Virus record (IMG/VR): IMGVR_UViG_3300021178_000001
Span: 32,001-96,000 of that record
Source: a virus
DNA length: 64,000 nt
Reading direction: 5' to 3' (one strand)
Shown: positions 11,772-62,835 of the stretch, in pieces
Position numbering within the stretch: position 1 is the first letter of the stretch
Layout of the letters: every line of letters begins with the position of its first letter
The notes under the pieces: model-generated
The model's database searches: none
What the model saw: only the letters and a program-made list of their open reading frames with translations
What the model was told of the DNA's origin: nothing
Position numbers and translations under genes: made by a program

Positions 11772-14414
11772 TTGATCCTCTCACGCTCAAAGCTTAATCC
11801 CCAGCAGCGCTTTGACCTCGAAGCCTACGTCGCCGAACAAGCCGCTTGCCGAGTCGACTCCAAGCTGTACGTTCAAAAGTTCCTCAGTTCTCAGAACCAC
11901 ATCTTGAACGGCTTCGCCGTCTCCGGCATAGGGCTCACCTCAGCCGTCGTGGGGATGGCGAACGCCGCCTTGATCGCACCGCAAAACTCGGTTGACTTCT
12001 CTTACTTCGTCTCGGCTCCCTCAGACCCAGACGTCACGATCGCCGCTTCGTCGCTCACGGTCAGTTCCCGCAACTATTTAGAAGCGAGTCTAGCCACTTT
12101 GGACGGAACCCCGATCGTCTCAGCGTTTTGGGACCCAGAAGCCAACGCTGGAAATGGCGCAGAGTTCAACCAAATCGTCAACACGATCACTGACCTAGAA
12201 GTTAAGTTCGTCGTTTTGACGGGTGGGTTCTCCGGAAGTCCCGACCGACTTCCCGTGGCGATCGTAGACGTGGACGGATCGGGAGTAATCAAACTCATCC
12301 TCGACCGCCGCGAGTTGTACGGCCGCCTCTCTAAGCCAGAGAACTTGGACAATTCCTACGCTTGGGGATCTAAAGTAGAGCCGGTTTACTCGCTCAACCT
12401 GACTTCAGAGTCTGGCACCTTCGTCTCGGGCGAGACTTTGACCATCGGCGGCGAGACCGCTACGGTCGTTTCAGGCGGCACGACCAACATCACCTTCAAC
12501 GCTCCCACGGGAATCAATTACTTCAACGGAAGTTCGGTTACGGGCGGAACTTCGGGAGCTACGGGCACAGTAAACACCGTCCTCGAGAGCTTTACCGGAG
12601 TAGACAAGAATCTCTACGCTCAAAAGGATATCAACGACGCTCTGGCGACCGAGCTCAAGACGATCAAGGACGTTCGTTTTTGGTGGCAAGACGTCGACTA
12701 CTCCTCGGACGTTCGAGGCGTTGAAAACGACCCCCTCGCTCGCCGAGTCGGAGTTCTGACCGACGCCGTCGGAGACGAGCAAGAAGATCGGTCGGGATAC
12801 CTCAGGTCCGACGACCCCGTCGCTTGGGACGGCAACTCGCTTTCCTTCACCGCCAACTTAGTTTTAGAGTTCGTCAACACCAAGAGCGGAACTCTCACTC
12901 AACACACCGTCCTTTTGGCCGGAAGTCCCATAGTTCTCAACAATTTAGAGTCCGCCTACGTCCTGATCAATCGATCTTCGACTTCTGAGAACGTCTCGGT
13001 CATTCGCTCCGGCACGACTCCTATTCCCGCTCAGTCTCAAAGCGAAAAAGACGTCTTCGTATTGTTCCGACGCCAAGACGCGGCGGCTGGCCACTTCCTC
13101 CACATCCCTTTCCACAAACAACTCTTGACTCCGGGATCTACGGTGCGTTTGGGCGCGACTGGAACGGGTGGAGGCGGAGGAGGTGGAGGCGGAACTTCAC
13201 CGTTGTTCGAGCAAGAAGTACCTTCTGGAACCGTAAACGGAGTCAACAACTCGTTCGCGCTGTCCCACACTCTGAAGACTAGTTCTGCGGCTGTAGTCTT
13301 GTTAGATACCTTGAAAGTGCCGGCTAGTCAAGTTTCGGTGACTGGAACTTCCGTAACTTTTTCTGGTTCGTCAACTCCTCAATTCGGTCAACGAGTCGAA
13401 GTTTTTTACATAGCCGACACCATAAACACACTCACCAGTTCGCAAGAAGTCCCCTCGGGAACTATCAACGGGTCCAACGCCACGTTTACTTTGGCTGGAA
13501 CTCCCCCCAACGCCGCGTCGATCTTGGTGTTCGTAGACGGCAAGAAAGCCAACGTCTCTGAGTGGAACTTGGTCGGAACGAACCAAATCGTCTTCACGGC
13601 TGGAAACATTCCGCAAGTCGGTCAGAGTTTGGAAGCGTTCTTCGTCCAAAGTTTAGGGACCACTTCGGTAGTTCAAGAAATTCCCTCCGGAACCGTAGAT
13701 GGCTCTAACGACACTTTCTCACTTTCGGTAAGTGCTCCCTACAAGAACGCTGCGGCAGTGTTCGTGGACGGGCGCAAGTCCGCTTTGGGCGACTGGAGTC
13801 TAATCTCCAGCGGCTCTGAAGTTAGGTTCGGGTCCGGATTCATTCCTCAACCCGGCCAGCGCGTAGAACTCTACTACTTCGTCGTCACGGGCGGAGGAGG
13901 CGGAAGCTCTGAGTCCCTCAACGACGCTTACCTCGTAGGCGCGACTATCACTACCACCTCGGGTGTTCCCTTCACGGTCGGCGGCGCGGCTTCCAAAGTA
14001 GCGGTCTTCAACGGCGACATCACGGTTACCGGCGTCATAGACCCCAAGGGACTAACTTTTGATCCCCAAGGTTCCACTCCGTTGACTGGATCTCAGAACG
14101 GGATTTGGGCGACTTCGGCCGGCGACTTGATCCATTCTCGTCCCAGCATGCCGGACGTGAACCTCACGCAAACGGCAGTTTCTAGCTACAAAGTCAACCG
14201 ATTCACGTTGTCTCCCACTGATATCACTAACGGATTCGTGACGCTGAGCGGAAATCCAGTTACAGTTTCCAGTACAATCTTAAATGTAATAGGCCTCGTT
14301 ACTCAAAGTTACGGGGACGATTTTACAGTCAGCGGCGCAACGCTGAGCTGGACCGGTTTAGGACTGGATGGAATTCTAAGTTCTGGAGACAAGTTAGTAG
14401 TTCAGTTTAGCTAA
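11772..14414 (+). CDS. tail fibre/baseplate attachment protein
   Basis: Probable TTG start after GGAG; Gly linkers; three about 78-aa repeats QEVPSGTVNG.N..F.L...PQ.GQ.VE.FY. Confidence 0.7.
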   Translation: MILSRSKLNPQQRFDLEAYVAEQAACRVDSKLYVQKFLSSQNHILNGFAVSGIGLTSAVVGMANAALIAPQNSVDFSYFVSAPSDPDVTIAASSLTVSSRNYLEASLATLDGTPIVSAFWDPEANAGNGAEFNQIVNTITDLEVKFVVLTGGFSGSPDRLPVAIVDVDGSGVIKLILDRRELYGRLSKPENLDNSYAWGSKVEPVYSLNLTSESGTFVSGETLTIGGETATVVSGGTTNITFNAPTGINYFNGSSVTGGTSGATGTVNTVLESFTGVDKNLYAQKDINDALATELKTIKDVRFWWQDVDYSSDVRGVENDPLARRVGVLTDAVGDEQEDRSGYLRSDDPVAWDGNSLSFTANLVLEFVNTKSGTLTQHTVLLAGSPIVLNNLESAYVLINRSSTSENVSVIRSGTTPIPAQSQSEKDVFVLFRRQDAAAGHFLHIPFHKQLLTPGSTVRLGATGTGGGGGGGGGTSPLFEQEVPSGTVNGVNNSFALSHTLKTSSAAVVLLDTLKVPASQVSVTGTSVTFSGSSTPQFGQRVEVFYIADTINTLTSSQEVPSGTINGSNATFTLAGTPPNAASILVFVDGKKANVSEWNLVGTNQIVFTAGNIPQVGQSLEAFFVQSLGTTSVVQEIPSGTVDGSNDTFSLSVSAPYKNAAAVFVDGRKSALGDWSLISSGSEVRFGSGFIPQPGQRVELYYFVVTGGGGGSSESLNDAYLVGATITTTSGVPFTVGGAASKVAVFNGDITVTGVIDPKGLTFDPQGSTPLTGSQNGIWATSAGDLIHSRPSMPDVNLTQTAVSSYKVNRFTLSPTDITNGFVTLSGNPVTVSSTILNVIGLVTQSYGDDFTVSGATLSWTGLGLDGILSSGDKLVVQFS

Positions 14415-14434
14415 TTAAAAAAAAAGAGTAAAAC

Positions 14435-16234
14435 ATGTCGCAACTCGTAACCAAAGGTATAACTAATCTCGCCGTCACAAACGCGAAGATCGCCAACGCA
14501 ACCATTGACTTGACTTCTAAAGTCACGAACCAACTCCCCATCGCCAACGGCGGTACCGGGCAGTCGACTGCAAACGCCGCTTTCGCCGCTCTCTCCCCAA
14601 TGACGACGGCCGGCGACATCATTTACGAGAACGCCACTCCGGCGCCGGCTCGTCTCCCGATCGGGTCCAACGGCCAAGTGCTCACGGTTTCTTCTGGACT
14701 CCCAGTTTGGTCCTCGGTCGCAGCCAGCGCCAACCAGCAGCTGAGCAACCTCTCCGGAACCGTAGCAGTAAACCTCAGCCTCAATCCGGGCGCCGACAAC
14801 AGCATCAACCTCGGTTCCAGCTCCTTCTCTTGGGCCGCAGCCAACATCCACGTGTTGAACGACTCCGCGGGCGGTTCTTCGGTAGACGTCTACAACCGCG
14901 TCTTGAAAGATTCTGCGGGCGCGACTCAACTTCAGTGGTCCACCTCGGGCGTCGAGATCAACTCGGCTAACCTGAACATGAACTCGCACCTCATCAACAA
15001 CCTCGCCAACGGCGTGGTGAGAAGCGACGCCATCAACTTGGGTCAACTCCAAGACATGGTCAACGGCCTCTCCTGGAAGACCGTGGTTCGGTCCGCCACT
15101 ACGGCGGCTCTTCCGGCCAACACTTACGCCAACGGTTCCTCGGGCGTCGGCGCTACCCTCACTGGAAACTCCAACGGAGCTCTCTCGGCTCAAGACGGCG
15201 TGACTCTGGTCCTCAACGACCGCTTGCTCGTCAAGAACGAAGCGGCAACCGCCAACAACGGCATCTACTACGTTTCTCAAGTCGGTTCCGGTGGAACTCC
15301 CTACATCTTGACTCGCGCCACGGACTCCGACACGTCGGCTAAACTGGTGTTCGAGGCCGTTCAAGTCGGAAGCGAAGCTTCCACTCAAGCCGGTTACTCT
15401 TACCGCGAGAGTGACCCGGCTCCGATTACCATCGGTACGACCAGCATCGACTACGTCAACTGGGCTACTGGAGTCGCCTACAACTTTAGGAACGGTCTCA
15501 GCGTCAGCGGAGCCAACGTGGACGTTGCTCCCGGCGACAACTCGCTGACCTCGACGGCTGGTTCCCTGATCGTTAAGGAAGATCCCGCGGGCGCGATCAT
15601 CACGGGCGCTTCCGGTATCAAAGTTCAGCTCGAGTCTTCGAACCCGTCGCTGCAAATTTCGAGCAACAAGCTCGGAGTCAAGTTCGACCCAGCTGGAGCT
15701 CTAGCTTCTGGAGCTGCTGGCGTAGCAGTTCAAGTGGACAACTCCACGATCGAGATCTCGTCCGACGCTCTCCGAGTCAAGGACGCCGGGATTACGCTCG
15801 CTAAACTCGCTTCGAACTCCGTGGACGAGAACAAGATCGTCTCGACGGCGCTCAGTTCGACCGGTGCCTTGAGCGGCGGTTCTGGAACCAAACTCGCGGT
15901 TAAAGTCGACGCCGCTACAGTCAAGATCAACGGTTCCGACAACCTCGAAGGTCTCAAGGGCAACGAGGAACACCCGACTCTTTCTTCAACCGACATCACG
16001 AACCAGTACTTCGACCTCGCTCACGCGGCTTACGGCGCCAGTGCTTCGGTGAACAGCATCTCGCTGAGCGCCGTCGGACTCTTGGAGCAGTCAAAGACTG
16101 TGGACTACACCGTGTCGCTCACGGGCGGTTCTGGCGGAGTCACGAGGATCACTTTCGCGGGCGACTTGGCGACGGGCGGCAACGCTGCTCTAGTCTCGGG
16201 AGACATTCTTCAGATCAAGTACGATTACCTCTAA
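14435..16234 (+). CDS. tail fibre protein
   Basis: LPIANGGTG motif, DRLLVKNE...NNGIY..V..LTRATD domain, collar/shaft repeats. Confidence 0.75.
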   Translation: MSQLVTKGITNLAVTNAKIANATIDLTSKVTNQLPIANGGTGQSTANAAFAALSPMTTAGDIIYENATPAPARLPIGSNGQVLTVSSGLPVWSSVAASANQQLSNLSGTVAVNLSLNPGADNSINLGSSSFSWAAANIHVLNDSAGGSSVDVYNRVLKDSAGATQLQWSTSGVEINSANLNMNSHLINNLANGVVRSDAINLGQLQDMVNGLSWKTVVRSATTAALPANTYANGSSGVGATLTGNSNGALSAQDGVTLVLNDRLLVKNEAATANNGIYYVSQVGSGGTPYILTRATDSDTSAKLVFEAVQVGSEASTQAGYSYRESDPAPITIGTTSIDYVNWATGVAYNFRNGLSVSGANVDVAPGDNSLTSTAGSLIVKEDPAGAIITGASGIKVQLESSNPSLQISSNKLGVKFDPAGALASGAAGVAVQVDNSTIEISSDALRVKDAGITLAKLASNSVDENKIVSTALSSTGALSGGSGTKLAVKVDAATVKINGSDNLEGLKGNEEHPTLSSTDITNQYFDLAHAAYGASASVNSISLSAVGLLEQSKTVDYTVSLTGGSGGVTRITFAGDLATGGNAALVSGDILQIKYDYL

Positions 16235-23738: not shown

Positions 23739-24251
23739 CTAGTGCTCAATGTCACTCTTTTGTTTGACCAACTTCTTAAAGTGATCTAAAGCCACTCTGT
23801 AATCCAAGTAAGTTTTTAGAGGACTCGGTTTGGGTTCTGAAACTTTCTGATTTATGATCTCCTCGGGATCTTTGTTGCCTTGAATGAACATCGACATCAG
23901 GTCTTGTTCGACCATGTATAGTCTGAGTACATGAGCGTCGTCGCCCACGTAAGACGTCCCGTTCGAGTCCCTCAAGTAACACGCCGTGACCCGCAAGTTG
24001 GGGTCCAAAGTGCGGATCCTAGAGAACCACTGAATGGCGACTGCTGCTTCCACTTCGATGTGGAAGGAGACCATGACGAATCCGGGTCCCTCGTCGTTCG
24101 GAGCCACGAGGATCAGCTTGAACATCGGAAGCAGTCCCTCGAAGAACTCGTGGATGAACTCGTGTTCCGACTCCGACGCGAGGCCGTACAAGTTCTTGAC
24201 CTGTTTTACTACTTCCGAATAAATCACAGTTTGTAACTCACTTTGGTCCAT
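23739..24251 (-). CDS. hypothetical protein
   Basis: Probable start MDQSELQ at 24251, overlapping the thyX end. Confidence 0.6.
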   Translation of the reverse strand: MDQSELQTVIYSEVVKQVKNLYGLASESEHEFIHEFFEGLLPMFKLILVAPNDEGPGFVMVSFHIEVEAAVAIQWFSRIRTLDPNLRVTACYLRDSNGTSYVGDDAHVLRLYMVEQDLMSMFIQGNKDPEEIINQKVSEPKPSPLKTYLDYRVALDHFKKLVKQKSDIEH

Positions 24252-25125
24252 CGAACATTCCGGGAGTGAACTTGGTGATGTTCTCGTCCTGCAACATTTT
24301 ACGATACTGAGCCCAACTCTTAAAGTTGCTGGTGTAGTAGGACGCGGCGGTCGACTGCGCTTGGTGTTCGGCGGGAGAAGAATGTTTCGGAATACCTCCC
24401 AAAAGACGGTCGTAGAGTTTGAGGTCGTCATCAATAGAAGTTTTAATGCCGTCGTGGTTTAAGTACGAGACTCTCGCACATCTAGCCACCGAACATTTGA
24501 TGGCGATCGTGATGGCCTCTGCTTCTTCTTGAAGACATGTGATGTCAAAAAGATCTGTAATTTCTTGTCGAGCGCTCTCGTCTATGAACGGGAGGTGCCA
24601 TCGACCATACTTTAAAAGTTGGGGTTTACTAGCTTCTCGAACGGCATACATCTCGTCCGCCAGAGCGTGAATTTCGGGTTGAGCCATTGGATGACACCTG
24701 AGAGCAAAGAAGTTGTCCCAGTCCGTCGCAGTAGCCACAACGGTGATGTGGGAGAATGGCTCGAGGAGACGATTCGCATACTGCTTATGCACTTCGAGGT
24801 TCACGAGAACTTGCGCTTGCATCACTGCCGCGTCTCTGGCGTCAATCCAGGCGTTGTAAGCTTGCTCTAGTGCTAGACCGTCTAAAGCTTCGCCGCCTTG
24901 CATCCCCTTTTGATTCTTGGTGAATGCCAGTGGAATGACTGGGTCATCCAGAACCATTTGAATCTGCTTCTTTACTGGAATAGCTCTGGAAGACGAAGCG
25001 TTGCGGGAGATCATTCGATGTGTTAAAAATTCGCTGTGAATCAACCGTGGGTAAGTCAAGACGAACGTAGTGATGCGAACGCCGTCTGGATTAATAGAGT
25101 CGGCGATAATTTTTGCTGAGATCAT
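24238..25125 (-). CDS. thyX: flavin-dependent thymidylate synthase (phage ThyX-like)
   Basis: THRMISRNASSSRAIP, HKQYANRLLEPF, NFFALR, H.SP.EH motifs. Confidence 0.85.
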   Translation of the reverse strand: MISAKIIADSINPDGVRITTFVLTYPRLIHSEFLTHRMISRNASSSRAIPVKKQIQMVLDDPVIPLAFTKNQKGMQGGEALDGLALEQAYNAWIDARDAAVMQAQVLVNLEVHKQYANRLLEPFSHITVVATATDWDNFFALRCHPMAQPEIHALADEMYAVREASKPQLLKYGRWHLPFIDESARQEITDLFDITCLQEEAEAITIAIKCSVARCARVSYLNHDGIKTSIDDDLKLYDRLLGGIPKHSSPAEHQAQSTAASYYTSNFKSWAQYRKMLQDENITKFTPGMFDGPK

Positions 25126-30038: not shown

Positions 30039-31814
30039 ATGTTCAAGCCAGTTGGATTTTCTGAAGTAATTTTTAAAGACAGATACGGTTTTACTAGTGA
30101 AGAAAGTTGGACCCAAGCTTGTCGCAGAGTTGCCAAACAAGCGGCCATAGCTGAGAAACCTCTAAAAGTAGAAGTCTACGAAGATAAATTCTACGACGAC
30201 TTAGTCAACAACTATTTCGTACCAGGCGGTCGCATTTGGTACAACTCTGGTCGTCCTAATCCTCAATTGCTAAATTGTTTCGTGTTGAACGAAGACCTCG
30301 ACTCCAAGGAAGGCTGGGGTCGTCTGTTGTACGAGAACGTCGTGACCGGAATGACTGGTGGTGGGTGCGGACAAGACTTCAGCGAGATCCGTCCCAACGG
30401 CGCCGAGATCAATGGTCACCGTGGAGTCTGTCCTGGACCTTTAGGTCTGATGCGCGGAGTGAATGCCGGTTCCCACATGGTGCGAGCTGGAGGCGGTCGT
30501 CGCGCCGCCAACATGTTTTCTGTAGATTCTACGCATCCGGACGTTTTAGAAATCATCGACGCCAAGCTCGTCAAGGGCGAGCTCGACATGGCTAACGTTT
30601 CCATACGATTCAAGAACGTCACCGGCTTCGTTAAAGCAGTCATAGAAGACGGATCGTGGGAACTTAGTTGGAAGGGTAAGTACAAGCGAGTTATTAAAGC
30701 TAGAGATCTATGGGACAAGATAGTGAGCAACGCCTGGAACAACGCCGAACCAGGCATCCTCAACATGGAACTAGCACTGTCTGAGAGCACTATTTACTAC
30801 ATAGAAGAGCTAATCACCACCAACCCATGTGGTGAGATCTTCTTGACTAAGTACGGAAACTGCTGTCTCGGACACTTAGTGCTAACACGTTTCATCAATA
30901 ATGGAAAAGTTAACTGGCAGTTATTAGGCGAAGTGATTCGCAACAGCGTTCGTTTCTTAGACAATATTCTGGACGTTAACTCATACCCGTTGCCTGAAAT
31001 GAAAGCAGCTTCGCAGAAACTTCGAAGAATTGGTCTAGGCACTACTGGACTCGCCGACATGCTAGCTATGCTTGGTATCAAGTACGGTTCGAAAGAAGGC
31101 AACGAGTTTAAGGACAAACTCTTCCGATTCATATCTAAAGCGTCCTACGAAGCCTCGGTGATGCTCGCCGTAGAAAAAGGAGCTTTCCCGGCTTGTAAGC
31201 CAGAGATGCATGTCAACTCCGGTTACGTAAAGCGCATGACCGATAAGATCCGTTCTCTCATCCGCGAACACGGTATCAGAAATTGTGCCTTGCTCACTCA
31301 GGCGCCGACGGGTACCGTATCGATCTTGTCGGGCAACTGCTCGTCCGGCATCGAACCCATGTTCGCGTTCGCTTACTGGAGAACTTACTGGGACGGAGAA
31401 GTACGCAAGTCTGAGCTGTGTTTTCACCCGTTGTTCGTAGAGTTCATGAATCAAGGCAAGTCGGTGGAACACTTCGTGGCTTCCCACGAGCTCTCAGTGC
31501 GAGACCACATGGAAGTTCAGAAAGTTATTCAGTACCACATCGACAACGCGTGCAGCAAGACTATAAACATGCCGGAGTGCTACCCAATAGAAGACATGGC
31601 CAAGCTATGGCTCGAGTACTTGCCGTTCCTCAAAGGCACGACTTTTTATCGAGAAAACTCTAGAAAGTTCATCAACGCCAAGGGTGAAGAGGAAGCGCCA
31701 CCGTTGACGCCGATTCCACTCGAAGAAGCGGTCCGACTGTACAAAGAGAAGTTAACCGCAAAAACTGAAGTGGCTGAAACTAATGATTGTCCAAATGGAA
31801 GTTGTAGTATATAA
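30039..31814 (+). CDS. nrdJ: ribonucleotide reductase, probably class II (B12-dependent)
   Basis: PGGRI, LLNCFV, TNPCGE, CCLG, RRIGLG, APTGT.S, SSGIEP, C-terminal CPNGSC; no beta subunit seen in the window. Confidence 0.85.
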   Translation: MFKPVGFSEVIFKDRYGFTSEESWTQACRRVAKQAAIAEKPLKVEVYEDKFYDDLVNNYFVPGGRIWYNSGRPNPQLLNCFVLNEDLDSKEGWGRLLYENVVTGMTGGGCGQDFSEIRPNGAEINGHRGVCPGPLGLMRGVNAGSHMVRAGGGRRAANMFSVDSTHPDVLEIIDAKLVKGELDMANVSIRFKNVTGFVKAVIEDGSWELSWKGKYKRVIKARDLWDKIVSNAWNNAEPGILNMELALSESTIYYIEELITTNPCGEIFLTKYGNCCLGHLVLTRFINNGKVNWQLLGEVIRNSVRFLDNILDVNSYPLPEMKAASQKLRRIGLGTTGLADMLAMLGIKYGSKEGNEFKDKLFRFISKASYEASVMLAVEKGAFPACKPEMHVNSGYVKRMTDKIRSLIREHGIRNCALLTQAPTGTVSILSGNCSSGIEPMFAFAYWRTYWDGEVRKSELCFHPLFVEFMNQGKSVEHFVASHELSVRDHMEVQKVIQYHIDNACSKTINMPECYPIEDMAKLWLEYLPFLKGTTFYRENSRKFINAKGEEEAPPLTPIPLEEAVRLYKEKLTAKTEVAETNDCPNGSCSI

Positions 31815-31821
31815 TTAATCT

Positions 31822-33051
31822 ATGCATGATTCTAGAACTAAAGGATTTAAATCTCAAGAATTAATTTCTAAGGAAGAGTTAGAACTTTATGATGGCTCAA
31901 CTAATAAAGAAATATCGGTGAAAACGGGAAGATCTATTTATATAGTTAAGAGATCTCTAATCCATCATGGACTTTACGTAGGAAAAGTTTATTTTACAAA
32001 GTGTCTAAGTTGTCAAAAAGAATTCGGAGACTTTGTTAAAGGAGCAAAATTTTGTTGTAATACTTGCAAACATTCAGGCCAATCTATATGGAATAGGGGA
32101 CTAACAAAGACCGATTCTGAGATACTTCGCGCAAGTAGCGTTCGCATGAGAGGCAATAAACTAGGGCATTTAATCGACTATTCCAAAAAAGCTGTAAAGA
32201 AACTTTTCTTACCTACTTTAGGAGTTGAAATAGACCATGATACAAGATCCAACCTAGAAAAAGAATGGTTACTTTTAGTAGATAAAGAACCTGGAATTAA
32301 AAAAATAGAAAGATGCGCTTTTTCAGTTCCTTTTCTTGATGATCAAAGAAAAGAAAAAAATTATTATCCAGATTTTATAGTTTATTGGGAAACTGGGGTG
32401 AAGTGGTTGGTAGAGGTGAAAGGATTAGCTACAGATTTAGATTATAGAAAATTCGAACAAACGAATTATTGGGCTAAAGATAATGGATATGACTATAGAA
32501 TAATAACTACTGGAATGGTGAAACAAAATAGTTGGAGTCGAGTGTACTCACATTATAAAAATATTAAAATAGAAAGCCATGAGTGGATGGGAATGAACCA
32601 CGCGTGTGCATGGTCTAGATCATCAGCATCAAATAGATTGCAAGTCGGGTGTGTCATATTTTCAATGGATTTTGAAGAAATATTTTCTTACGGATACAAT
32701 GGAGATGAGAGAGGAGGATGCAATATTCCTACAAGTAGTGCACCCGGATGTGACAAATTTTTACACGCAGAAGAAAACGCACTTTTAAAGTTAAAAACTA
32801 GAGATGCTTGTAAGATGTTTATCACGGACTCTCCATGCGAAATGTGTGCAAAAAGAATAATAAATTCAGGAAATATAAAAGAAGTTTACTATCTAAGACC
32901 ATACAGAGACATGACTGGAGTAGGACTTTTAGCGAGAGCGGGAATAAAAGTTTACAATTTCGTACTTGTAGATCATTTGGGAAAACCTTTTTCGGCAGAC
33001 CATGCATACGAGCATCTAAGACCAGCTAGTCATGATAAGTTTCCGTCTTAG
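31822..33051 (+). CDS. fusion: Zn-finger + TnsA/Hef-like PD-(D/E)xK endonuclease + dCMP deaminase
   Basis: CLSC...FCCNTC; RSNLEK..., YYPDF...LVEVKG; QVGCVI..GYNG, HAEENA, SPCEMC. Confidence 0.85.
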   Translation: MHDSRTKGFKSQELISKEELELYDGSTNKEISVKTGRSIYIVKRSLIHHGLYVGKVYFTKCLSCQKEFGDFVKGAKFCCNTCKHSGQSIWNRGLTKTDSEILRASSVRMRGNKLGHLIDYSKKAVKKLFLPTLGVEIDHDTRSNLEKEWLLLVDKEPGIKKIERCAFSVPFLDDQRKEKNYYPDFIVYWETGVKWLVEVKGLATDLDYRKFEQTNYWAKDNGYDYRIITTGMVKQNSWSRVYSHYKNIKIESHEWMGMNHACAWSRSSASNRLQVGCVIFSMDFEEIFSYGYNGDERGGCNIPTSSAPGCDKFLHAEENALLKLKTRDACKMFITDSPCEMCAKRIINSGNIKEVYYLRPYRDMTGVGLLARAGIKVYNFVLVDHLGKPFSADHAYEHLRPASHDKFPS

Positions 33052-33118
33052 TATACGAAATTTGACAAATACACTAAGATAGAGATTGAACCCACGAAGT
33101 AACAGAAGAGGTTTCAAG

Positions 33119-33685
33119 ATGAAAGAACGGTTTGTAGGCGGTGAAGTAGTAACAGTTAGGTTCGACGACGCAGTGTCTTCCAACGCTTACTTAGTTGACT
33201 CAGACGACGGCGAAGGGACTGTACTGTTAAAGCATCCACTGTTCCCGTCTTGTCTCTTGCGTTTTCCTAAGAGTGATCTCGATCAAGTGGCTCCCAACGT
33301 CAAGGACTCTACAGAACGCTCGCTAGACTTCGCCAACGCCAACGCTAAGTACTTGGACTATAACACTTTAGCCGACCACGAGGCTTTGTGTCTTTATTTC
33401 GTAGTGCGTCGAAAGTTGACTCCTAGACAAAAAAATCTACTCTCTAACATTTGCGGACAAATTGCTGGCATTAAACTAAACGACGATATAAAATACGCCA
33501 TGAGTTTAGTCGCGGCGCACGAGGCCATACTAGACGAGTTCAACCTCATGTGGTACCGCAACTTCAGCGGATTATTTTCTGGTCGTCAAAACATCACTAG
33601 TAAAAAACAGCGTTCCGCTATCTTTAACATCGCGGGATTCGTCTTAGCCGAACTTGAGAGACCTTCGGTACCCAAAAAGGTATAA
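33119..33685 (+). CDS. hypothetical protein
   Basis: ATG after a GAGG RBS. Confidence 0.6.
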   Translation: MKERFVGGEVVTVRFDDAVSSNAYLVDSDDGEGTVLLKHPLFPSCLLRFPKSDLDQVAPNVKDSTERSLDFANANAKYLDYNTLADHEALCLYFVVRRKLTPRQKNLLSNICGQIAGIKLNDDIKYAMSLVAAHEAILDEFNLMWYRNFSGLFSGRQNITSKKQRSAIFNIAGFVLAELERPSVPKKV

Positions 33686-36495: not shown

Positions 36496-38460
36496 ATGCA
36501 ATTTAACCGGCTAGTTAAGCCGCAATGGGCACAACCGACTTTAGCAAACGGTGAGCCCAATCCTAAATTCTTAGCAGCCGTCGACGGACCCAACACCTTC
36601 GAGGGTTGCTTTACTCCAGAGTTCTTGACTGAACAAAACGAGAAGGGATATAACATATATTTCTTCCCGAATCATCCGTCAACAAACGTGTATGATACTG
36701 GAGTCAAACATCTTAACGGCCGCAACATCGACGTCTTCAACTTCGTGTTCGTCGACATGGACCTCAAGGACAAAGTCTACGCTAGCAAGGAAGAATTTTT
36801 AATACAACTGGATAAGTTTCCGCTCAAACCCACGATGGTCGTTGATTCTGGCAACGGCATCCACGCTTACTGGCGCGTGACTGACTTAACTAGAAGCTTG
36901 TATGTAATTACCCAGATCGCACTTCTAACACACTTTAAAACCGATGAGTCGGTTTGGACCGTCTTGCAATTGATGCGAGTGCCGCAGTATCTAAACACTA
37001 AGAGACACAACGACTATGTTCCAGCTTTGATTCTGGAAGACAGGTCCAGTGGCGAAGCTTACACGATTTCTCAGTTTCCTAAAGAACTCTACGAACTCGA
37101 CGAAAAACTAGTAGTAAAAGCTCAGAACCACATCAACCGCCTCGAAGGAAAACTAGAGATCGACTTTGGACAAGAAGTCAACGTAGACGAGTTGCCGGAC
37201 GAGTTCGTCCAGTTGATGCTGGACAACTCAGAGATAGCTAGACTCTTTAGAGATCCTAAGTCTTTTGGGGACCGATCCAGCGCCGACATGAAGCTGGCCA
37301 ACCAAATGTTCACGAAGGGACTGAACGTTAGAGTCGCCTTAGCTGTTTTATCAAACACTCAGAAGGCTCTCGAAAAAGGAGCTCATAGAAAAGACTATGC
37401 AGCCTTGACGGTCTTTAAGGTCTACTCAGACCGTCCCAAACACAAGTTTCAGACCGTAACAGAGTACGTTCGGGACTCGCGCGACAAGATTAATGAACCA
37501 CAGATCTTTGGTCCTTACTACGCCGACTACGAAGTTTTGGGCGAACCGTGGCGTCGCAAAGAGTTATTGGGGGTAATAGCAGGACCGGGCATCGGTAAAA
37601 CTGCTTTCGCGCTCAACATCATTAGAGACGTGATTCAGAACAATCCGCACAACGACGATCTGTACATATTCTTTTCGCTAGAGATGTCCAAGGGTCAAGT
37701 TATACGTCGATGGTTGAAACTAGTGGGCGAAAATTCTATTTTGGCTGATCGGCTGTACGTTATCGACACGACAGACGAGAAGGGGCTTCCAGTCTCGATC
37801 GGACTGCAAGAGATCTACGAGTACTGCTCTGAGATCAAGCAAGTCACTGGTAAGCGCATCGGTGCCTTTGTGGTAGATCATTTCCACATTATCAGCTCGC
37901 ACATCAACATCCACAAGAAGCCGAATTTTGGGATCAAGAGTGAACAAAACACTGGGTACGGCGACGTACAGAACTTGAGCGCTAACGGACTGGCAACTCA
38001 ACTTAAGTCGTTGGTGAAAGCGCTTGACTCGTTCGGAATAATTCTTACCCAGACTACTAAGGAAAAAGGTGCCGGAGACTTGCCCATAGGTAAAGACGGT
38101 GCGTACGGCGTGTCACAGTACGAGTGGATCATGGATCGAATCTTAACTATATGGCAACCGTTGATGCGTGTCCAAAACTTGTGCAAGAACAACTTCTTGG
38201 CGTTTCAGTACGCTAAGATTCGCGAGAAACACCCGGCCGACAAGATCAAAGAGTACGACCCAAAGTTGTTGACTTACGACATGGCATCTGGTAACCTAAG
38301 AATAACTTCGACGGACGAGTACACTGAGTTCTCCGACTTGTTGCCGAAAGCCAATGAAGCCCGCGAAATGGTAACCAAGAAGAAGCCCGGAGCTTACTCC
38401 ATTCAACTTGACTTAGGCAGCATAGACGCTGCACTTAACAAACTGAGGGTCAGCAGATGA
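36496..38460 (+). CDS. primase-helicase (RepB/AEP-type primase + DnaB-like SF4 helicase)
   Basis: FVDMD, VDSGNGIHAYW, LMRVP; GPGIGKT, FSLEM, VVDH. Confidence 0.85.
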   Translation: MQFNRLVKPQWAQPTLANGEPNPKFLAAVDGPNTFEGCFTPEFLTEQNEKGYNIYFFPNHPSTNVYDTGVKHLNGRNIDVFNFVFVDMDLKDKVYASKEEFLIQLDKFPLKPTMVVDSGNGIHAYWRVTDLTRSLYVITQIALLTHFKTDESVWTVLQLMRVPQYLNTKRHNDYVPALILEDRSSGEAYTISQFPKELYELDEKLVVKAQNHINRLEGKLEIDFGQEVNVDELPDEFVQLMLDNSEIARLFRDPKSFGDRSSADMKLANQMFTKGLNVRVALAVLSNTQKALEKGAHRKDYAALTVFKVYSDRPKHKFQTVTEYVRDSRDKINEPQIFGPYYADYEVLGEPWRRKELLGVIAGPGIGKTAFALNIIRDVIQNNPHNDDLYIFFSLEMSKGQVIRRWLKLVGENSILADRLYVIDTTDEKGLPVSIGLQEIYEYCSEIKQVTGKRIGAFVVDHFHIISSHINIHKKPNFGIKSEQNTGYGDVQNLSANGLATQLKSLVKALDSFGIILTQTTKEKGAGDLPIGKDGAYGVSQYEWIMDRILTIWQPLMRVQNLCKNNFLAFQYAKIREKHPADKIKEYDPKLLTYDMASGNLRITSTDEYTEFSDLLPKANEAREMVTKKKPGAYSIQLDLGSIDAALNKLRVSR

Positions 38461-41192
38461 ACGAGAAGTACAATTTAGTTGACACTCCCGACAAACTTCG
38501 CGAACTAGATGACCTCCTAATGGACGGAGACGCCCCTCGTTACAAACTCTTGGCGTACGACACTGAGACCAACGGACTAGCTTTATATAAAACTACGGTT
38601 ATAGGATTCTCAGTGTCTTTCGACAAGCACCGAGGATTCTACGTTCCTTTACTTCGTTGGGTTCCAGACGAAGGTACTCGACGCGACCGCTCAGTCGACA
38701 AAGTAAAGTACTCGGCGTGCATGGAAGGCAAACTCCAGTGCGTCTGGACCGGCGAGTTTTTCGACGAGTTTGTGACTCCAGAAAAGTACAATCTGCGAGA
38801 GCGTTTTCCAGCTATACCGTTCTTGATCGAGCGGTGGTTTGGACACACTAACTTGATAATGCACAACGCACCCTTCGACGTCAACCACACTTTCATAAAC
38901 ACTGGCGTAGACTTGAAGAACCAAGTGTTCGTCGACACCGCGTTGTTGCTCCACGTGTTGGACGAGAATAGTCCCGCCGCTTTGAAAAAAGCCGCGGAGA
39001 GATACAGAGTAGAGCTCGGTATTGACCCGTTCCGCGCCGCCGCCATTGAGAAGAACGAACTCGACGACTGCATCATCAAGAACGGCGGGTGGGGTGGAGA
39101 AGTTTGGCGTGCGTCCATGGAGTTTCAATACAAGTACGCTTGCGCCGATACTTTTCTAACTTATGGAATCTATGAAGCCGCCATCAAAGAGTTCGACGAT
39201 CGTTTCGGCGATCGTGGACTCGCTTGGTTCTTTCAGCAAGAAGTGATGCCAGTTTGCAAAGAAGTAGTGATCGACATGAAGCGTCGCGGCGTGCACGTAG
39301 ACGTTCCGTACTTCAAGAAACTGTACGAAGAGAACGCGATTAAGATAGATGCACTCGAAGACGCTATAATGCAAGACTTAGCGCCCCATCTTAGCGACTT
39401 CGACTTGGGCAAGTCAATAGACGAGGCGGTCTCGAGTCAGCGATTGATCAAGAGAATCATACAGATGGAAGGTCTGTCACTCCCAAAGAAGACAGACAAA
39501 AAGACCGGCGAGGTCAAAGAGTCGCTGGCTAAAGCAGAAGTAAAGCGAGTCTTCGAGCAGGCTCCTCATTGGATCTGGGGTTACATCTTGGGAGAAGACG
39601 AGTTAAAGTACTCGGAACAAAAGATCGCCGACATAAAGAAACAGTTGTACGTCGAGGAAGAAGGTCGCCGGTACCGATTCAACATCGGCTCCCGCGACCA
39701 CTTAATGTGGTTGTTTTGCACTAAGTTGGGTACCAGTAAGACTAAGTTGCCGCAAACTGAGTCAGCCACTAAGGATCACCCGATCCCTAGCATGGACGCA
39801 GACACTCTCAAAGAGTTCATGCTTCCTAAGTTTTCTTGGGTTGCCAAGATTTTGACTTACAAGAAGTTGCAGAAACTTCAGACTACATACATCAAACCGG
39901 CGTTGGAACTCAACATAAACGGTTGGCTTTACATGGACATGAAGCAAAATGGAACTACTTCGGGTCGGTTCAGCTGTGCTGGCGGTTACAATCTCCAGAC
40001 TCTCCCCCGCGTAGACGACGAGATGGAAATACTGCAGTCTTGTGACAAGTGCTTCTCAGACGACGTGAAGATAGTTCAAGACTTGGAATGCATCGCGGAC
40101 AGACACTGCAACAAGTGTAACCACACTTTAACTGACATTCCTAGACCCTCAGCCATTAAGAAAGGGTTCATAGCTCCTCCGGGCTACAAGATTATTAACG
40201 CCGACTATAGTTCACTAGAACCCAGGTGCTTTGCGTTCGTGTCTGGAGAAGAGAAAATTAAGGAAGTGTATCGTAAGGGACTTGACTTATATTCTAAAGT
40301 TTACTGTGACATCTTCGACAAAGAGAAGCAGTACTCTGCAGATCCTGAAGCTCCAAACTTTCTTAAGAAAGTGGCTAAGGCTAAGAGAACTTGGGTAAAG
40401 CCTATCGTATTAGGCATACCTTACGGTGCCGAAGACGATCAGGTTGCAAATTTAATTGACGCAAAAGTACCTAAGAAGAATTGGGCTGGAGTTCCAGTAG
40501 TAGACGACGATGGCAATCCTGTTATGGTGGCCGATCATAAAGAAGGTAAGCGAGTCCGTGACATGTACTTGGCTGCATATCCAAGTCTGAATAAGTATAT
40601 GGATGATCAAGACGATAAGGCAGTTTTGCAAGGTTATGTTGAATCTTTAGTAGGACGCCGTCGTCATTTGCCATTTGCAAAGAAGATAGGCGATATACTT
40701 TCAGCCAATGACATTGATTGGCGTGACCTCACGCAAGCGCCCATATGGGATTTGCGCAAAGGCATGAACATAAGTTACACTAGTTTTCGAGGTGCTCGAA
40801 TCACACTGACCGAGACAATGATTCGACAAATTCAGGAAGCCGTAAAGTTTAAAGAAGAGTCGATGCGCGAGAAAGGCTACTGGGCTTATATCAGAGCTCT
40901 ATTGCGATCAGATCTTAACAATGCTAAGAATAACCCAATTCAAGCGCTCGCTGGTTCCATAACAAACAGGGGCATGCTAGATACGAATCGTTTTTTTAAT
41001 TTAAGAGCGTCTGGAGCATGGGTGGCTTTGCAAATTCATGACGAAATTACATGTTACGCTCCCATAGGAGTAGCAGAGTCCGCATCTTCCTGTCTACAAG
41101 AAGGTATGGAAGACAATATTGTGTGCAAAATGTTAGATATTGCTATGATAGCTGAACCTGTTATTTGTGAGAATCTAAAAGATGCAAAATAG
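38457..41192 (+). CDS. polA: family A DNA polymerase with 3'-5' exonuclease domain
   Basis: YDTET, HNAPFD, YACAD; TSGRFS, NLQTLP, ADYSSLEPR, R...K...LG..YG, QIHDE. Confidence 0.95.
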   Translation: MNEKYNLVDTPDKLRELDDLLMDGDAPRYKLLAYDTETNGLALYKTTVIGFSVSFDKHRGFYVPLLRWVPDEGTRRDRSVDKVKYSACMEGKLQCVWTGEFFDEFVTPEKYNLRERFPAIPFLIERWFGHTNLIMHNAPFDVNHTFINTGVDLKNQVFVDTALLLHVLDENSPAALKKAAERYRVELGIDPFRAAAIEKNELDDCIIKNGGWGGEVWRASMEFQYKYACADTFLTYGIYEAAIKEFDDRFGDRGLAWFFQQEVMPVCKEVVIDMKRRGVHVDVPYFKKLYEENAIKIDALEDAIMQDLAPHLSDFDLGKSIDEAVSSQRLIKRIIQMEGLSLPKKTDKKTGEVKESLAKAEVKRVFEQAPHWIWGYILGEDELKYSEQKIADIKKQLYVEEEGRRYRFNIGSRDHLMWLFCTKLGTSKTKLPQTESATKDHPIPSMDADTLKEFMLPKFSWVAKILTYKKLQKLQTTYIKPALELNINGWLYMDMKQNGTTSGRFSCAGGYNLQTLPRVDDEMEILQSCDKCFSDDVKIVQDLECIADRHCNKCNHTLTDIPRPSAIKKGFIAPPGYKIINADYSSLEPRCFAFVSGEEKIKEVYRKGLDLYSKVYCDIFDKEKQYSADPEAPNFLKKVAKAKRTWVKPIVLGIPYGAEDDQVANLIDAKVPKKNWAGVPVVDDDGNPVMVADHKEGKRVRDMYLAAYPSLNKYMDDQDDKAVLQGYVESLVGRRRHLPFAKKIGDILSANDIDWRDLTQAPIWDLRKGMNISYTSFRGARITLTETMIRQIQEAVKFKEESMREKGYWAYIRALLRSDLNNAKNNPIQALAGSITNRGMLDTNRFFNLRASGAWVALQIHDEITCYAPIGVAESASSCLQEGMEDNIVCKMLDIAMIAEPVICENLKDAK

Positions 41193-41811
41193 TTTTTATG
41201 TTTACAAGCACATTCGCAAAGACACTGATCATGTTTTTTATGTTGGAAAAGGGACAAAGAACAGAGCGTGGTCGAAAATGAAAAGAAACCGTAGATGGGA
41301 ATTTATATCTAATTTTGGGTACACAGTTGATATCATCCAAGACAATTTATCTGAAACAGATTCTTTCAAGCTCGAAATTGAGACTATAGCTTTTTATAAA
41401 AACCAGGGTCAGTGTGAAGCTAATTTTGCCATTGGAGGTATCGGAGGCAACACTTTTGTTAATAAAACAATCGAAGAACTAGAATTGTTTAAAGTAAAGA
41501 TGTCAAAGATAACGTCTTCTAGACCTGTGAAATGTCTGCGACCACTTAAAGGTCCAGAACATCCTATGTGGGGAAAAAGTAATCCTTATAGTGGGCACAC
41601 CGTTGAAGGTTTAGAAAAACTCAGACAATCTAAACTTGGTAATAAAAATCCAATGTACAACAAGTCTGGAGAGTTGCATCCTCGATTTGCAGGTTGGTGG
41701 ATAACACCTGCTGGAAGATTTGCTAGTTTAAAAGAAGCAGAAATAGCAAATAATTCGCGCAGCGTGAAGCACAGATGCAAGAGAAGCAAGTCAACTAAAT
41801 TTAAAGAATGA
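41182..41811 (+). CDS. GIY-YIG-type homing endonuclease with NUMOD3-like repeats
   Basis: FYVYKH...FYVGKG...RA; E...I..Y; GGIGG; HPMWGK, NPMYNK. Confidence 0.8.
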   Translation: MQNSFYVYKHIRKDTDHVFYVGKGTKNRAWSKMKRNRRWEFISNFGYTVDIIQDNLSETDSFKLEIETIAFYKNQGQCEANFAIGGIGGNTFVNKTIEELELFKVKMSKITSSRPVKCLRPLKGPEHPMWGKSNPYSGHTVEGLEKLRQSKLGNKNPMYNKSGELHPRFAGWWITPAGRFASLKEAEIANNSRSVKHRCKRSKSTKFKE

Positions 41812-43866: not shown

Positions 43867-44748
43867 ATGAGCAAATTTGACTTAACTAAAACTATTTCTA
43901 AGATTCAAAATTCCCTTAAGGCAGATGAGCGTAGGTCGAGCCAAATAGGCTTGGGATCTTCTTTAGAATCTATGTCTACAGATCCCGCAGATTATATAGT
44001 TATGCCTGACTGGTGGCATAAAAGTTTTGGTATTATGGGTCTTCGTTTTGGTCACTTTGTTCAAATTGCAGGAACTCCGGATTCTGGAAAAACTTCGCTA
44101 TCACTCTGTGCCATTAAACGTGCACAAGATCAAGGGTTTGGAGTTATTTATGTAGAAACAGAAGGCAAAACTTCTGAGGAAGATCTAGTTGCTGCGGGCG
44201 TCGATCCTAATGGAGTGATCACTATTAGATCTAAAATTGTGGAAGAAGCATTTGATGCAGCAAATCTAGCTATAGATGCTTTTTTTGATGATTTTCCTGA
44301 CGCTAAATTATTATTTGTATTTGATTCTTATGGCAATACTATATCTATGCGCGACTCTGAACTTAAGTTAGTAGATAAGTCTAGCATGGTCGGTGGTGCC
44401 GCAAAAACAAATCGCATGGGCATTGGTGCCATTGCAGCAAAGCAAATAAATCATCCTATTGCTTGCTTAATTGTGAATTACACATATTCAAATATGGGAT
44501 CTCCTGGTAGAACGTGTGCAGGAGGCGAAGCTTTGAATTTTCATTGTATGTTGACAATTCAGTCGTCGCGCAAAGGTTGGTATGAGCGAACAGTTGGTGG
44601 AGAGAAAGTTCGTGCTGGAGCAGAAGTTTTATGGCGTTCGTATAAGAATCATTACTCAAAAAGTTTAAAAGATGCAGAAGGAAATCAAGTACTTCTACCC
44701 AAAGAAGTTACGTTGAGAATTAGTGCTGATGGATTTGAGTTACTCTAA
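43867..44748 (+). CDS. recA: RecA/UvsX-like recombinase
   Basis: GTPDSGKT, YVETE, GVD, FVFDS, GG.AL.F. Confidence 0.85.
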   Translation: MSKFDLTKTISKIQNSLKADERRSSQIGLGSSLESMSTDPADYIVMPDWWHKSFGIMGLRFGHFVQIAGTPDSGKTSLSLCAIKRAQDQGFGVIYVETEGKTSEEDLVAAGVDPNGVITIRSKIVEEAFDAANLAIDAFFDDFPDAKLLFVFDSYGNTISMRDSELKLVDKSSMVGGAAKTNRMGIGAIAAKQINHPIACLIVNYTYSNMGSPGRTCAGGEALNFHCMLTIQSSRKGWYERTVGGEKVRAGAEVLWRSYKNHYSKSLKDAEGNQVLLPKEVTLRISADGFELL

Positions 44749-45413
44749 TGAAAGCATGCACTAGATGTAAAATGCTTAAAAGTAAGCATGAATTCGCAAT
44801 TGAAAAACGTACGAATAAATTAACACCGGCATGTCGAGACTGCGAACGCCAACGTAGTCGCTTGAAATATCATAAATATAAGCTTGCTTATTTAGCAACA
44901 TCAAGACGCTACAAAGAAAATAATAAAGAGCAGATTGCAAGCACATGTGCTAATTGGTATTTAGCCAATAAAGACTACGTAGATGCTAGAAACAGACTTT
45001 ATGATCAAAATCATAAAATTCAAAAAGTAGAGAACTGTAGAGTTTACTCTAAAGAACGTCGTAGAACTGATCTAAATTATAGACTAACAAAAGTTCTTCG
45101 ATCTAGATTACGCTTAGCATTGAGAAATATCCAAAAGAGTGGTTCTGCTATATCAGATCTAGGGTGTTCAATAGATGAGTTAAAACAGTATATTGAGAAG
45201 CAATTTCATAATAATCCAATAACTAGCGAAAATATGTCATGGGATAACAGAGGTCCGATGAAGCCTAATTATTGGCAAATAGATCATATTCGTCCGCTAG
45301 TTTCTTTTGATCTCTCAGATCGAGAACAACTTAAAATTGCTGTACATTTTTCTAACCTGCAACCATTATGGTTTGAGGATCATCTTCCTAAATCACAGTT
45401 GGAACGACGATGA
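44748..45413 (+). CDS. HNH homing endonuclease
   Basis: CTRC...CRDC; LGCSIDELK.YIE..F; WQIDHIRP..SFD, HFSNLQPL. Confidence 0.9.
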   Translation: MKACTRCKMLKSKHEFAIEKRTNKLTPACRDCERQRSRLKYHKYKLAYLATSRRYKENNKEQIASTCANWYLANKDYVDARNRLYDQNHKIQKVENCRVYSKERRRTDLNYRLTKVLRSRLRLALRNIQKSGSAISDLGCSIDELKQYIEKQFHNNPITSENMSWDNRGPMKPNYWQIDHIRPLVSFDLSDREQLKIAVHFSNLQPLWFEDHLPKSQLERR

Positions 45414-62284: not shown

Positions 62285-62295
62285 ACTTGGATTAT

Positions 62296-62835
62296 ATGCA
62301 AATTAGTAAGTCATTATCTAGACATAGAGCTAGAAGAGCATGGGAAAGTTATTATAAAGCATCAATCTTGCCAGGAATGCATCTCCATCACAGAGACAGT
62401 AATTCTAGAAATAATAGCATTGAAAATTTAGTAGTTTGTACTCCAGAAGAACACGTAGAGTTTCATAGACAATTAGGTCATAAAATTCAACAAAATTATA
62501 TATTTAAAGCAAACTTTTTTGCCGACATGACGGTAGAAGAGCAAGAAGCATTCAGACGGAAAGCAAGTGAATATTCTAAACGTAGGATAAATTTAAGTAG
62601 ATCAGATCAAACTAGACTATTGTGTAAACTCAATAGTGCTCTTCAAGCTAACTCACTTGAAATGATAGACGTTGAAACTGGTAAAATTGTAAGTGAGTTC
62701 TTTAGCATTAAAGAAGCAGCTGAAAAACTTGACATTCAACGTGCTCATATACGGCGAGTCATAACCGGCGAGCGCAAAGGTTGGAGAGGCTATGTCTTTA
62801 GATACAAAGAGTTCAGAAATGCAGGACACCTTTAA
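62296..62835 (+). CDS. HNH homing endonuclease with NUMOD1-like tail
   Basis: HLHHRD.N..NN.IENL..C...EH...H; F.SIKEAA..L...I..V..G.RK...GY.FRY. Confidence 0.9.
   Translation: MQISKSLSRHRARRAWESYYKASILPGMHLHHRDSNSRNNSIENLVVCTPEEHVEFHRQLGHKIQQNYIFKANFFADMTVEEQEAFRRKASEYSKRRINLSRSDQTRLLCKLNSALQANSLEMIDVETGKIVSEFFSIKEAAEKLDIQRAHIRRVITGERKGWRGYVFRYKEFRNAGHL

Follow-up and report, generated by a model that had tools for sequence, protein, structure and literature searches.

Why a phage should encode a nuclease and a nucleotide deaminase as one polypeptide is the question raised by a single open reading frame (ORF) in IMG/VR record IMGVR_UViG_3300021178_000001. The DNA analysed here, referred to as the window, is a stretch of 64,000 nucleotides (nt) corresponding to bases 32001-96000 of this viral genome, which is complete (114,255 bp) and carries direct repeats at its termini. 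A first-pass annotation, made from the DNA letters, had described at this locus one uninterrupted AT-rich ORF with zinc-finger, nuclease and deaminase motifs; all the motifs it quoted are present, and the GC content of the ORF is 0.345 as compared with 0.486 for the window. On balance, the fusion is probably an old, mobile cassette of a homing-type nuclease plus cargo that displaced the resident deoxycytidylate (dCMP) deaminase gene, cd. The architecture and conserved active sites of the protein, the monophyly of its family, the xenologous replacement in the same slot, the foreign composition, the unrelated genomic backgrounds and the asymmetric decay of the nuclease carry this reading. The parts of the fusion are as follows.

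31822..33051, forward strand: whole fusion ORF, 409 amino acids (aa) plus stop, with an ATG start and no internal stop.
31855..31986, forward strand: three-helix, helix-turn-helix (HTH)-like N-terminal domain, residues 12-55 (AlphaFold2 helices 17-21, 28-35 and 39-48).
31987..32169, forward strand: four-cysteine zinc ribbon (C61, C64, C78, C82) and WNRGLTK...GNK basic stretch, residues 56-116.
32179..32526, forward strand: TnsA-like PD-(D/E)xK nuclease core (E146, D184, E198, K200), residues 120-235.
32527..32577, forward strand: short, less conserved linker, residues 236-252, with a predicted local distance difference test (pLDDT) score of 56-67.
32578..32997, forward strand: dCMP-deaminase-family domain (H315-A-E317, P338-C339-x2-C342), residues 253-392.

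The domain junction near 32560 (residue ~247), where an assembly artefact had been considered possible, is spanned in frame by 27 independent metagenomic relatives, and single ORFs are also found in the DNA of loci L048 and L001. This bridging by relatives excludes a chimeric assembly or a frameshift. As the ORF is continuous and the genome complete, an artefact of any of the kinds considered (chimeric assembly, read-through frameshift or merged genes) is practically ruled out. No Hint or intein family is found among the Pfam matches of the window protein at E <= 1.

The C-terminal half of the protein would be a compact dCMP deaminase. The dCMP_cyt_deam_1 family (PF00383) matches residues 255-358 with 55.3 bits (cut-off 25) and is found in 28 of 28 family members, and the dCMP deaminase family phrog_174 matches at 3.3e-34. 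The family profile aligns with the cyanophage S-TIM5 dCMP deaminase (4p9c) at E 1.1e-24. An AlphaFold2 model built on the family alignment (mean pLDDT 82.4, predicted template modelling score 0.62; pLDDT ~90 in both catalytic cores) has the same enzyme, 4p9c_A, as its top Foldseek match, with E 2.3e-9, TM 0.82 and a root-mean-square deviation (rmsd) of 1.8. The Foldseek-independent VIA comparison also places 4p9c_A first (Z 17.4; model residues 235-380), followed by 2w4l (16.3), 2hvv (16.0) and 1vq2 (15.5). The catalytic H/E/C/C residues are intact in all 33 members, and H315-A-E317-E-N319-A320, P338-C339-x2-C342 and Y356/Y357/Y361 are invariant or at least 90% conserved in the family alignment. 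For the dCMP deaminase/ComEB clade, Iyer et al. (2011; PMC3239186) list as features H-x-E, P-C-x-x-C, N-A after H-x-E, and a Tyr located between strand 4 and helix 4. Fold and catalytic motifs are shared with the compact phage dCMP deaminase of S-TIM5 and with those of S. mutans, human, T4 (Cd) and PBCV-1 (bi-DCD), and the C-terminal YYxxxYR...G segment of the fusion also aligns with 4p9c. These enzymes are stand-alone proteins of about 136-190 aa, whereas the fusion has ~250 aa of DNA-binding and nuclease modules ahead of its deaminase. dCMP deaminases are typically hexamers.

The nature of this domain bears on an alternative that the first-pass annotation had offered as its more speculative one, a DNA-targeted deaminase-nuclease acting on host or competitor DNA. 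Here the N-terminal module would dock on a specific site in such DNA, the deaminase would act on (modified) cytosines in the unwound DNA, and the nuclease would nick nearby. DNA-binding modules and a deaminase do occur in one chain, the deaminase core resembles anti-phage dCTP deaminases at the domain level, and some phage PF00383 enzymes are described, in the available part of a preprint, as acting on dCTP-type substrates and single-stranded DNA (10.1101/2024.12.05.627091). The domain is, however, closest to mononucleotide dCMP deaminases, as the match to 4p9c (E 1.1e-24, Z 17.4) indicates. The fusion deaminase also keeps the insert before HAE, which in dCMP deaminases caps the site and restricts access to a soluble base, according to Iyer et al. 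(2011; PMC3239186); within the insert, the fusion family does not conserve the second zinc site. Moreover, the gene occupies the cd slot of relatives and encodes the sole deaminase of a genome that has ThyX (see below). A DNA-targeted deaminase-nuclease is thus not favoured and is considered very unlikely; if true, the protein would be no simple metabolic enzyme but a weapon or homing device with 'edit and cut' functions built in. The resemblance to anti-phage dCTP deaminases (NF041025; dCTPase in PADLOC) lies in the catalytic core, residues 313-380 of the fusion. Membership in NF041025 is rejected, as the fusion scores 57.8 bits against a cut-off of 400 and matches only with residues 313-364; its N-terminal domain is different, and it is phage-encoded.

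The nuclease core contains the motifs R142-S-N-L-E146-K, Y181-Y-P-D184-F and L196-V-E198-V-K200-G. Tn7_TnsA-like_N (PF08722) matches residues 167-229; hmmscan gives 25.6 bits (cut-off 26.5), the genome scan 29.1 bits. It also matches 26 of 28 family members at E <= 0.01 (best 5e-11). Among PHROG families, the window protein matches phrog_15427 ('endonuclease'; 5.5e-7) and, with residues 142-201, phrog_218 ('head closure'; 2.6e-9). By VIA-align, model residues 115-231 are closest to TnsA (1t0f_A, Z 9.8, rmsd 3.5, 115 aligned; 9bw1_M, Z 6.9), and the next folds are Bax1, VRR-NUC and Hjc at Z 5.5-6.2. Agreement of the hidden Markov model (HMM), profile and AlphaFold-model fold searches therefore supports both halves of the protein in sequence and in fold, and with them the proposed combination of nuclease (TnsA, Z 9.8) and deaminase (4p9c, Z 17.4) domains. 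D184/E198/K200 are intact in 30 of 33 members, and all four residues including E146 in 29; the triad is lost in P0028, where it is substituted, in P0029, which lacks the domain, and in L049, a decayed remnant. A weak, unexplained profile match to PDB entry 8gy8_A, 'putative translation initiation factor (IF-2 homolog)', is also seen (E 0.0016; query 119-206).

The catalytic-domain fold and PF08722 are shared with TnsA of Tn7 (1t0f, 9bw1). Unlike Tn7, the genome carrying the fusion lacks a TnsB-type rve transposase (0 matches in the complete genome; the control matched in 6 of 14 genomes), and the fusion has no terminal or flanking repeats. A Tn7-like transposon is ruled out on these grounds, and the likeness is one of fold only. 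A search of the genome for the TnsA C-terminal domain gave no match, but the control matched nowhere either.

Ahead of the nuclease core, the HTH-like helices are modelled with pLDDT of about 89-90, and LTNKEI...VKxSLxHHGLY is conserved across this domain in the family alignment. Since only 1 of 28 family members gives a (weak) HTH Pfam match, the label HTH-like is a structural one. The zinc ribbon has the spacing C61-x2-C64...C78(C79)-x3-C82, and all four cysteines are kept in 28 of 33 members. The WNRGLTK...GNK stretch is NUMOD3-like by resemblance, with no NUMOD3 Pfam match for the window protein at E <= 1.

An exhaustive HMMER search with residues 1-245 yields 66 proteins at E <= 1e-3. Among these, the full N-terminal module is confined to the fusion family (nine proteins, two of them fragments); the other 57 are mostly proteins of 200-400 aa with the nuclease core at the C-terminus. 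Ten of these 57 free-standing relatives, chosen by rank or by a long N-terminal alignment, were scanned for domains, and 21 were aligned. Nine of the ten scanned have PF08722 (eight above the cut-off), eight match phrog_15427 'endonuclease' and two have NUMOD3 Pfam matches, of which one exceeds the cut-off. Matches to PHROG families named 'homing endonuclease' or 'HNH endonuclease' are seen for the N-terminal parts of five. The aligned relatives have the same CxxC...CxxxC ribbons and a WN(K/R/E/H)GLTK motif, and hhalign of the fusion family against the free-standing endonucleases, of 200-300 aa, gives 99.85% (E 7.5e-31; residues 60-232). On the strength of the shared ribbon, WNxGLTK motif and core, together with the hhalign match, the first 235 residues are assigned by sequence to an apparently uncharacterised class of modular phage endonucleases with a build like that of homing endonuclease gene (HEG) products.

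In these free-standing endonucleases (phrog_15427; PF08722 with NUMOD3 or zinc ribbons), the ribbon, WNxGLTK and the S-x-x-E...YxPDF...E-x-K core stand in the same order as in the fusion. Unlike the fusion, they stop after the nuclease and lack the HTH-like first domain, and none of the ten scanned has a deaminase. From their modules we infer that these apparently uncharacterised relatives are homing enzymes. With its HTH-like domain, zinc ribbon, WNxGLTK stretch and TnsA-like core, the N-terminal half of the fusion would be a homing-type, site-specific endonuclease. P0094, a free-standing relative of 502 aa with NUMOD3 and a TnsA-like core, is an in-frame fusion with a piece of the major capsid protein gp23 (Pfam match to Gp23, residues 343-480, equal to profile positions 213-342 of 376); it may be another nuclease-plus-target-gene fusion, or a split capsid gene. 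In the mitochondrial atp6 gene of Allomyces, an endonuclease ORF is fused in frame to part of the target gene.

The 27 relatives of the whole fusion in a large protein collection are 37-62% identical to it and cover 72-99% of the query. Without exception they derive from JGI, ENA or Logan metagenome assemblies, none is NCBI-sourced, and the only name given to any is 'dCMP deaminase'. In the alignment, the order of parts is fixed: HTH-like start, four-cysteine ribbon, IWNRGLTK...S.RM.GNK, nuclease core, linker and deaminase. Mean pairwise identity in the 33-member table reaches 0.53 in the deaminase, compared with 0.42-0.43 in the three N-terminal parts and 0.32 in the linker. Given this level of identity and the triad in 30 of 33 members, the nuclease is under purifying selection in most of the family.

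A tree of deaminase domains was built from 73 HMM matches, of which 66 are distinct after identical sequences were dropped (L006 and L007, identical to L005; L019 and L020, to L018; L032, to L002; L047, to L043; L048, to P0008). The fusion-family domains form one clade of 31 rows, with a Shimodaira-Hasegawa-like approximate likelihood ratio test (SH-aLRT) support of 98, and the two short forms, L049 and P0029, nest within it. As judged from this phylogeny, the fusion is an old, monophyletic gene family. A search with the deaminase domain for longer proteins, the reach of which is close relatives, gave 21 matches, all of this family (PF00383 with PF08722 or with nothing else).

The genomic slot of the fusion is defined by its two neighbours.

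30039..31814, forward strand: upstream neighbour, class II ribonucleotide reductase (RNR) NrdJ (TIGR02504, 441 bits; cut-off 399.95).
33086..33685, forward strand: downstream neighbour 'o199' (likely start ATG 33119), the right flank of the deaminase slot in seven of seven syntenic relatives.

The gap between NrdJ and the ATG of the fusion is 7 nt, and o199 has no PHROG match. Seven syntenic IMG/VR loci have the order o490(-), GroEL, variable slot, X, o199, o604, o182, o654, with flanking proteins 39-74% identical to those of the window. In six of the seven (L041, L042, L043, L045, L046 and L047), X is a stand-alone deaminase of 151-162 aa directly upstream of o199, so that the check suggested in the first-pass annotation, for such a gene in related phages, is positive; L043 and L047 are identical at this slot, and L044 has no deaminase there. 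None of the seven has a nuclease at the slot, where tblastn matches span only fusion residues 239-363. The native stand-alone deaminases have the GC content of their own genomes, are ~31% identical to the fusion deaminase domain, and form a separate, long-branched clade with support of 100 in the 66-domain tree. No second deaminase is found in the complete window genome. Taken together, the native deaminases in six of seven same-slot relatives, the ~31% identity, the separate clade and the absence of a second deaminase indicate that a xenologous gene with ~250 extra N-terminal residues took over the slot of the resident cd. With no second deaminase in the genome, the fusion gene must now supply the deaminase function. 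ThyX is encoded 6.7 kb upstream of the fusion, whose deaminase probably feeds dUMP to it.

Several other features of this region and of pyrimidine metabolism are seen. The slot between GroEL and the deaminase holds NrdJ in the window and L041, holds an unrelated ORF of 616-618 aa in L043, L046 and L047, and is empty in L042, L044 and L045. The ThyX-like gene (window 24238-25125, reverse strand) scores 46 bits, the NCBIfam cut-off being 87.9. In L209 920-3068 (genome about 12831-14979, outside the window), a divergent ThyA-family gene (phrog_160, 1.9e-28; Pfam, 39.8 bits) is flanked by methyltransferase-like and thymidylate-kinase-like genes. The presence of two thymidylate-synthase-type enzymes together with a kinase is a hint that the phage DNA may contain a modified pyrimidine.

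The family and slot data bear on the possibility of a bifunctional salvage enzyme, in which the nuclease would degrade host or other DNA and the deaminase would make dUMP for ThyX, the fusion having been selected for metabolic coupling. Constraint on the two domains is comparable, the fusion is retained in about 30 lineages, and the genome encodes NrdJ, ThyX and a ThyA-family enzyme, with the fusion as its only deaminase, all of which would be expected of such an enzyme. However, the sequence-reading parts (HTH-like domain, zinc ribbon, WNxGLTK) are of a type common to free-standing phage endonucleases, not to bulk DNases, and TnsA-type endonucleases cut site-specifically and do not produce mononucleotides. 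In addition, six of the seven relatives manage on a plain deaminase, the deaminase persists in three lineages that have lost the nuclease, and the foreign composition and unrelated genomes would be left unexplained. A salvage enzyme is therefore rather unlikely.

Evidence for mobility comes from genomic context, which was obtained for four family members: the window, L001, L048 and L049. In three of these contexts, the AT content of the fusion gene exceeds that of its flanks (GC 0.345 versus ~0.49 in the window, 0.455 versus 0.56-0.60 in L001, and 0.342 versus about 0.41 in L048); in L049, the nuclease of which is decayed, its GC equals that of the flanks. L001, L048 and L049 have no other gene in common with the whole 114-kb genome at E <= 1e-4. 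Genome-wide, the fusion locus is the 600-nt segment of lowest GC (0.32; mean 0.485, standard deviation (sd) 0.054; 114,255 bp). Decay within the family is asymmetric: the deaminase site is never lost (33 of 33 intact), whereas the nuclease D/E/K residues are lost in 3 of 33. The fusion family would thus be one that moves between unrelated phages as a single unit. L001 is an unrelated, GC-rich viral contig; an HNH/EndoVII-like endonuclease gene (L001 4790-5494, reverse strand; phrog_1035, phrog_374) lies 2.2 kb from its N-terminally truncated fusion gene.

The borders of the fusion gene have the following features.

31770..33100, no strand: AT-rich island in the 60-nt GC profile, starting ~50 nt inside the RNR 3' end and stopping just before the next gene.
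31787..31815, forward strand: promoter-like TTGTCC-17-TATAAT, a 10/12 consensus match that is not above chance.

The GC drop in the nrdJ tail ranks 2 of 61 among long ORFs, about 1.7 sd from the mean; an AT-rich nrdJ tail suggests co-converted flanks. The last ~50 nt are AT-rich both in nrdJ (window 31764-31814) and in a 911-aa ORF at 38457-41192 (41140-41192), the tail of which ranks 3 of 61 and adjoins a GIY-YIG-like low-GC nuclease gene at 41182. These AT-rich tails upstream of two low-GC nuclease genes may be co-conversion tracts. The TATAAT that had been assigned to the gene as its own exists and ends 6 nt before the ATG, overlapping the RNR stop codon; it carries no statistical weight, because five promoter-like sites are observed in the region against 5.0 +/- 2.3 in shuffled sequences. 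No terminator-like site was found around the fusion gene.

Besides the fusion, 12 ORFs of at least 100 aa in the genome have GC below 0.41, and six of them match homing, HNH or EndoVII families (PHROG/Pfam). Ten of the 12 were scanned, giving these six endonuclease-like ORFs, one RecA-like ORF and three without a match; the other two are an antisense shadow ORF and a 1044-aa ORF. The six are listed below.

Window 41182-41811, forward strand: low-GC ORF, phrog_314 'homing endonuclease', GIY-YIG-like.
Window 44748-45413, forward strand: low-GC ORF with a homing/HNH/EndoVII-family match.
Window 62287-62835, forward strand: low-GC ORF with HNH_3 and an I-HmuI NUMOD-like domain.
Genome 97126-97743, reverse strand: low-GC ORF with a homing/HNH/EndoVII-family match.
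Genome 100561-101664, forward strand: low-GC ORF with a homing/HNH/EndoVII-family match.
Genome 112743-113315, forward strand: low-GC ORF with a homing/HNH/EndoVII-family match.

Putative homing endonuclease genes are accordingly numerous in this phage, in which low GC is a mark of predicted nuclease genes. Composition, unrelated genomes, kinship to endonucleases and nuclease decay in 3 of 33 members all fit the earlier proposal of a selfish nuclease with a useful cargo. One correction concerns the origin of the fusion: the deaminase that the nuclease joined was not that of this phage. The fusion, old and monophyletic, came in as one unit and took the place of the resident gene.

Catalytic residues conserved over the long term would also be expected of a domesticated nuclease module, which would exclude or cleave co-infecting phages or satellites, or tether or regulate the deaminase on DNA, and would no longer be mobile. 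One study (PMC11620839) reports that competition among co-infecting phages can depend on an endonuclease encoded in an intron. This alternative overlaps the preferred one, since homing and interference use the same cut. Foreign composition and unrelated backgrounds, however, indicate continuing transfer, and the module has no known target, making domestication unlikely.

For the preferred explanation, a mobile homing-nuclease-plus-cargo cassette, the following mechanism is proposed. In the window phage, the cassette would have taken the place of the stand-alone cd, which in relatives lies between o199 and the gene for RNR or GroEL. During co-infection, the nuclease would cut cassette-less genomes at or near the slot, and repair from the cassette-bearing genome, through homology in the flanking nrdJ and o199, would copy the cassette in. 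The fused deaminase, being so divergent, would lack the nuclease target; it would restore the overwritten function, and recombination could not part it from the nuclease. We thus infer nuclease activity and its target, homing, and the deaminase substrate from the features described above. HEGs cluster near phage RNR genes, co-mobilised cargo has been proposed, and PD-(D/E)XK HEGs in phages are mentioned, in the relevant passages of Barth et al. (2023; PMC10448857); a free-standing HEG adjoining RNR genes, T4 mobE, is described in the portion available of a further paper (PMC2790892). By analogy, the position of the fusion beside an RNR gene fits both the clustering of HEGs and the idea of an HEG plus cargo. 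As in the HEG islands outlined in those passages, a nuclease lies by an RNR gene and a useful gene travels along; in the islands nuclease and cargo are separate genes, whereas the fusion combines them in a single polypeptide, with a cargo xenologous to the displaced gene (Barth et al., 2023; PMC10448857).

Several observations weigh against a mobile cassette. The PF08722 score of the window protein is just below the cut-off by hmmscan (25.6 versus 26.5). Conservation of the nuclease comes close to that of the deaminase (0.43 versus 0.53), and the two stay fused in ~30 lineages; selection for a host function would explain this equally well. No near-identical copy is found in a divergent phage, and with 62% as the highest identity to any relative, the data do not demonstrate a recent transfer. 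Genomic contexts cover just four family members, the AT-rich RNR tail is only ~1.7 sd off the mean, and no flanking or terminal repeats and no above-chance signal are found at the borders of the fusion gene. Also, at ~31% deaminase identity, homing would need flank homology, which is present only among close relatives.

Among 50,697 genomes of catalogued phages, tblastn with the whole protein matched 594 records, none covering at least 80% of it; the N-terminal 245 aa gave no match at E <= 1e-3, and an 8-kb megablast gave no match. In 185,579 prokaryotic genomes, the best 80 of 526 matches are deaminase-only, and none aligns before residue 187. No description of a nuclease-dCMP deaminase fusion was found in the literature searched, which comprised texts without their supplementary files, a possible home of domain architectures. 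Acinetobacter phage vB_AbaM_B9 (MH133207.1) was considered as an unfused precedent and rejected: its annotated 'endonuclease' gene overlaps the start of a CMP deaminase gene by 14 nt (L214 2047-2941), and the case is one of adjacency only because this endonuclease is unrelated to the fusion module (hhalign 0.1%, no Pfam match).

As a rule, homing endonuclease genes either stand alone or lie concealed in introns or inteins, which limits harm. In the present family, a covalent link ties a homing-type nuclease to a functional substitute for the gene displaced. What appears to be new is thus a putative homing-type endonuclease fused to a functional xenolog of the gene whose place it took. It also brings to light an apparently uncharacterised class of phage endonucleases, comprising about 60 representative clusters and marked by a zinc ribbon, WNxGLTK and a TnsA-like core, the specificity of which could be useful. 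The family further offers a natural experiment in which native and xenologous cd occur at one locus, along with forms having a decayed nuclease. If homing is confirmed, the fusion would provide a compact, self-complementing route for a selfish element into an essential-pathway slot, and would be the one-polypeptide extreme of the 'HEG plus cargo' idea for phages.

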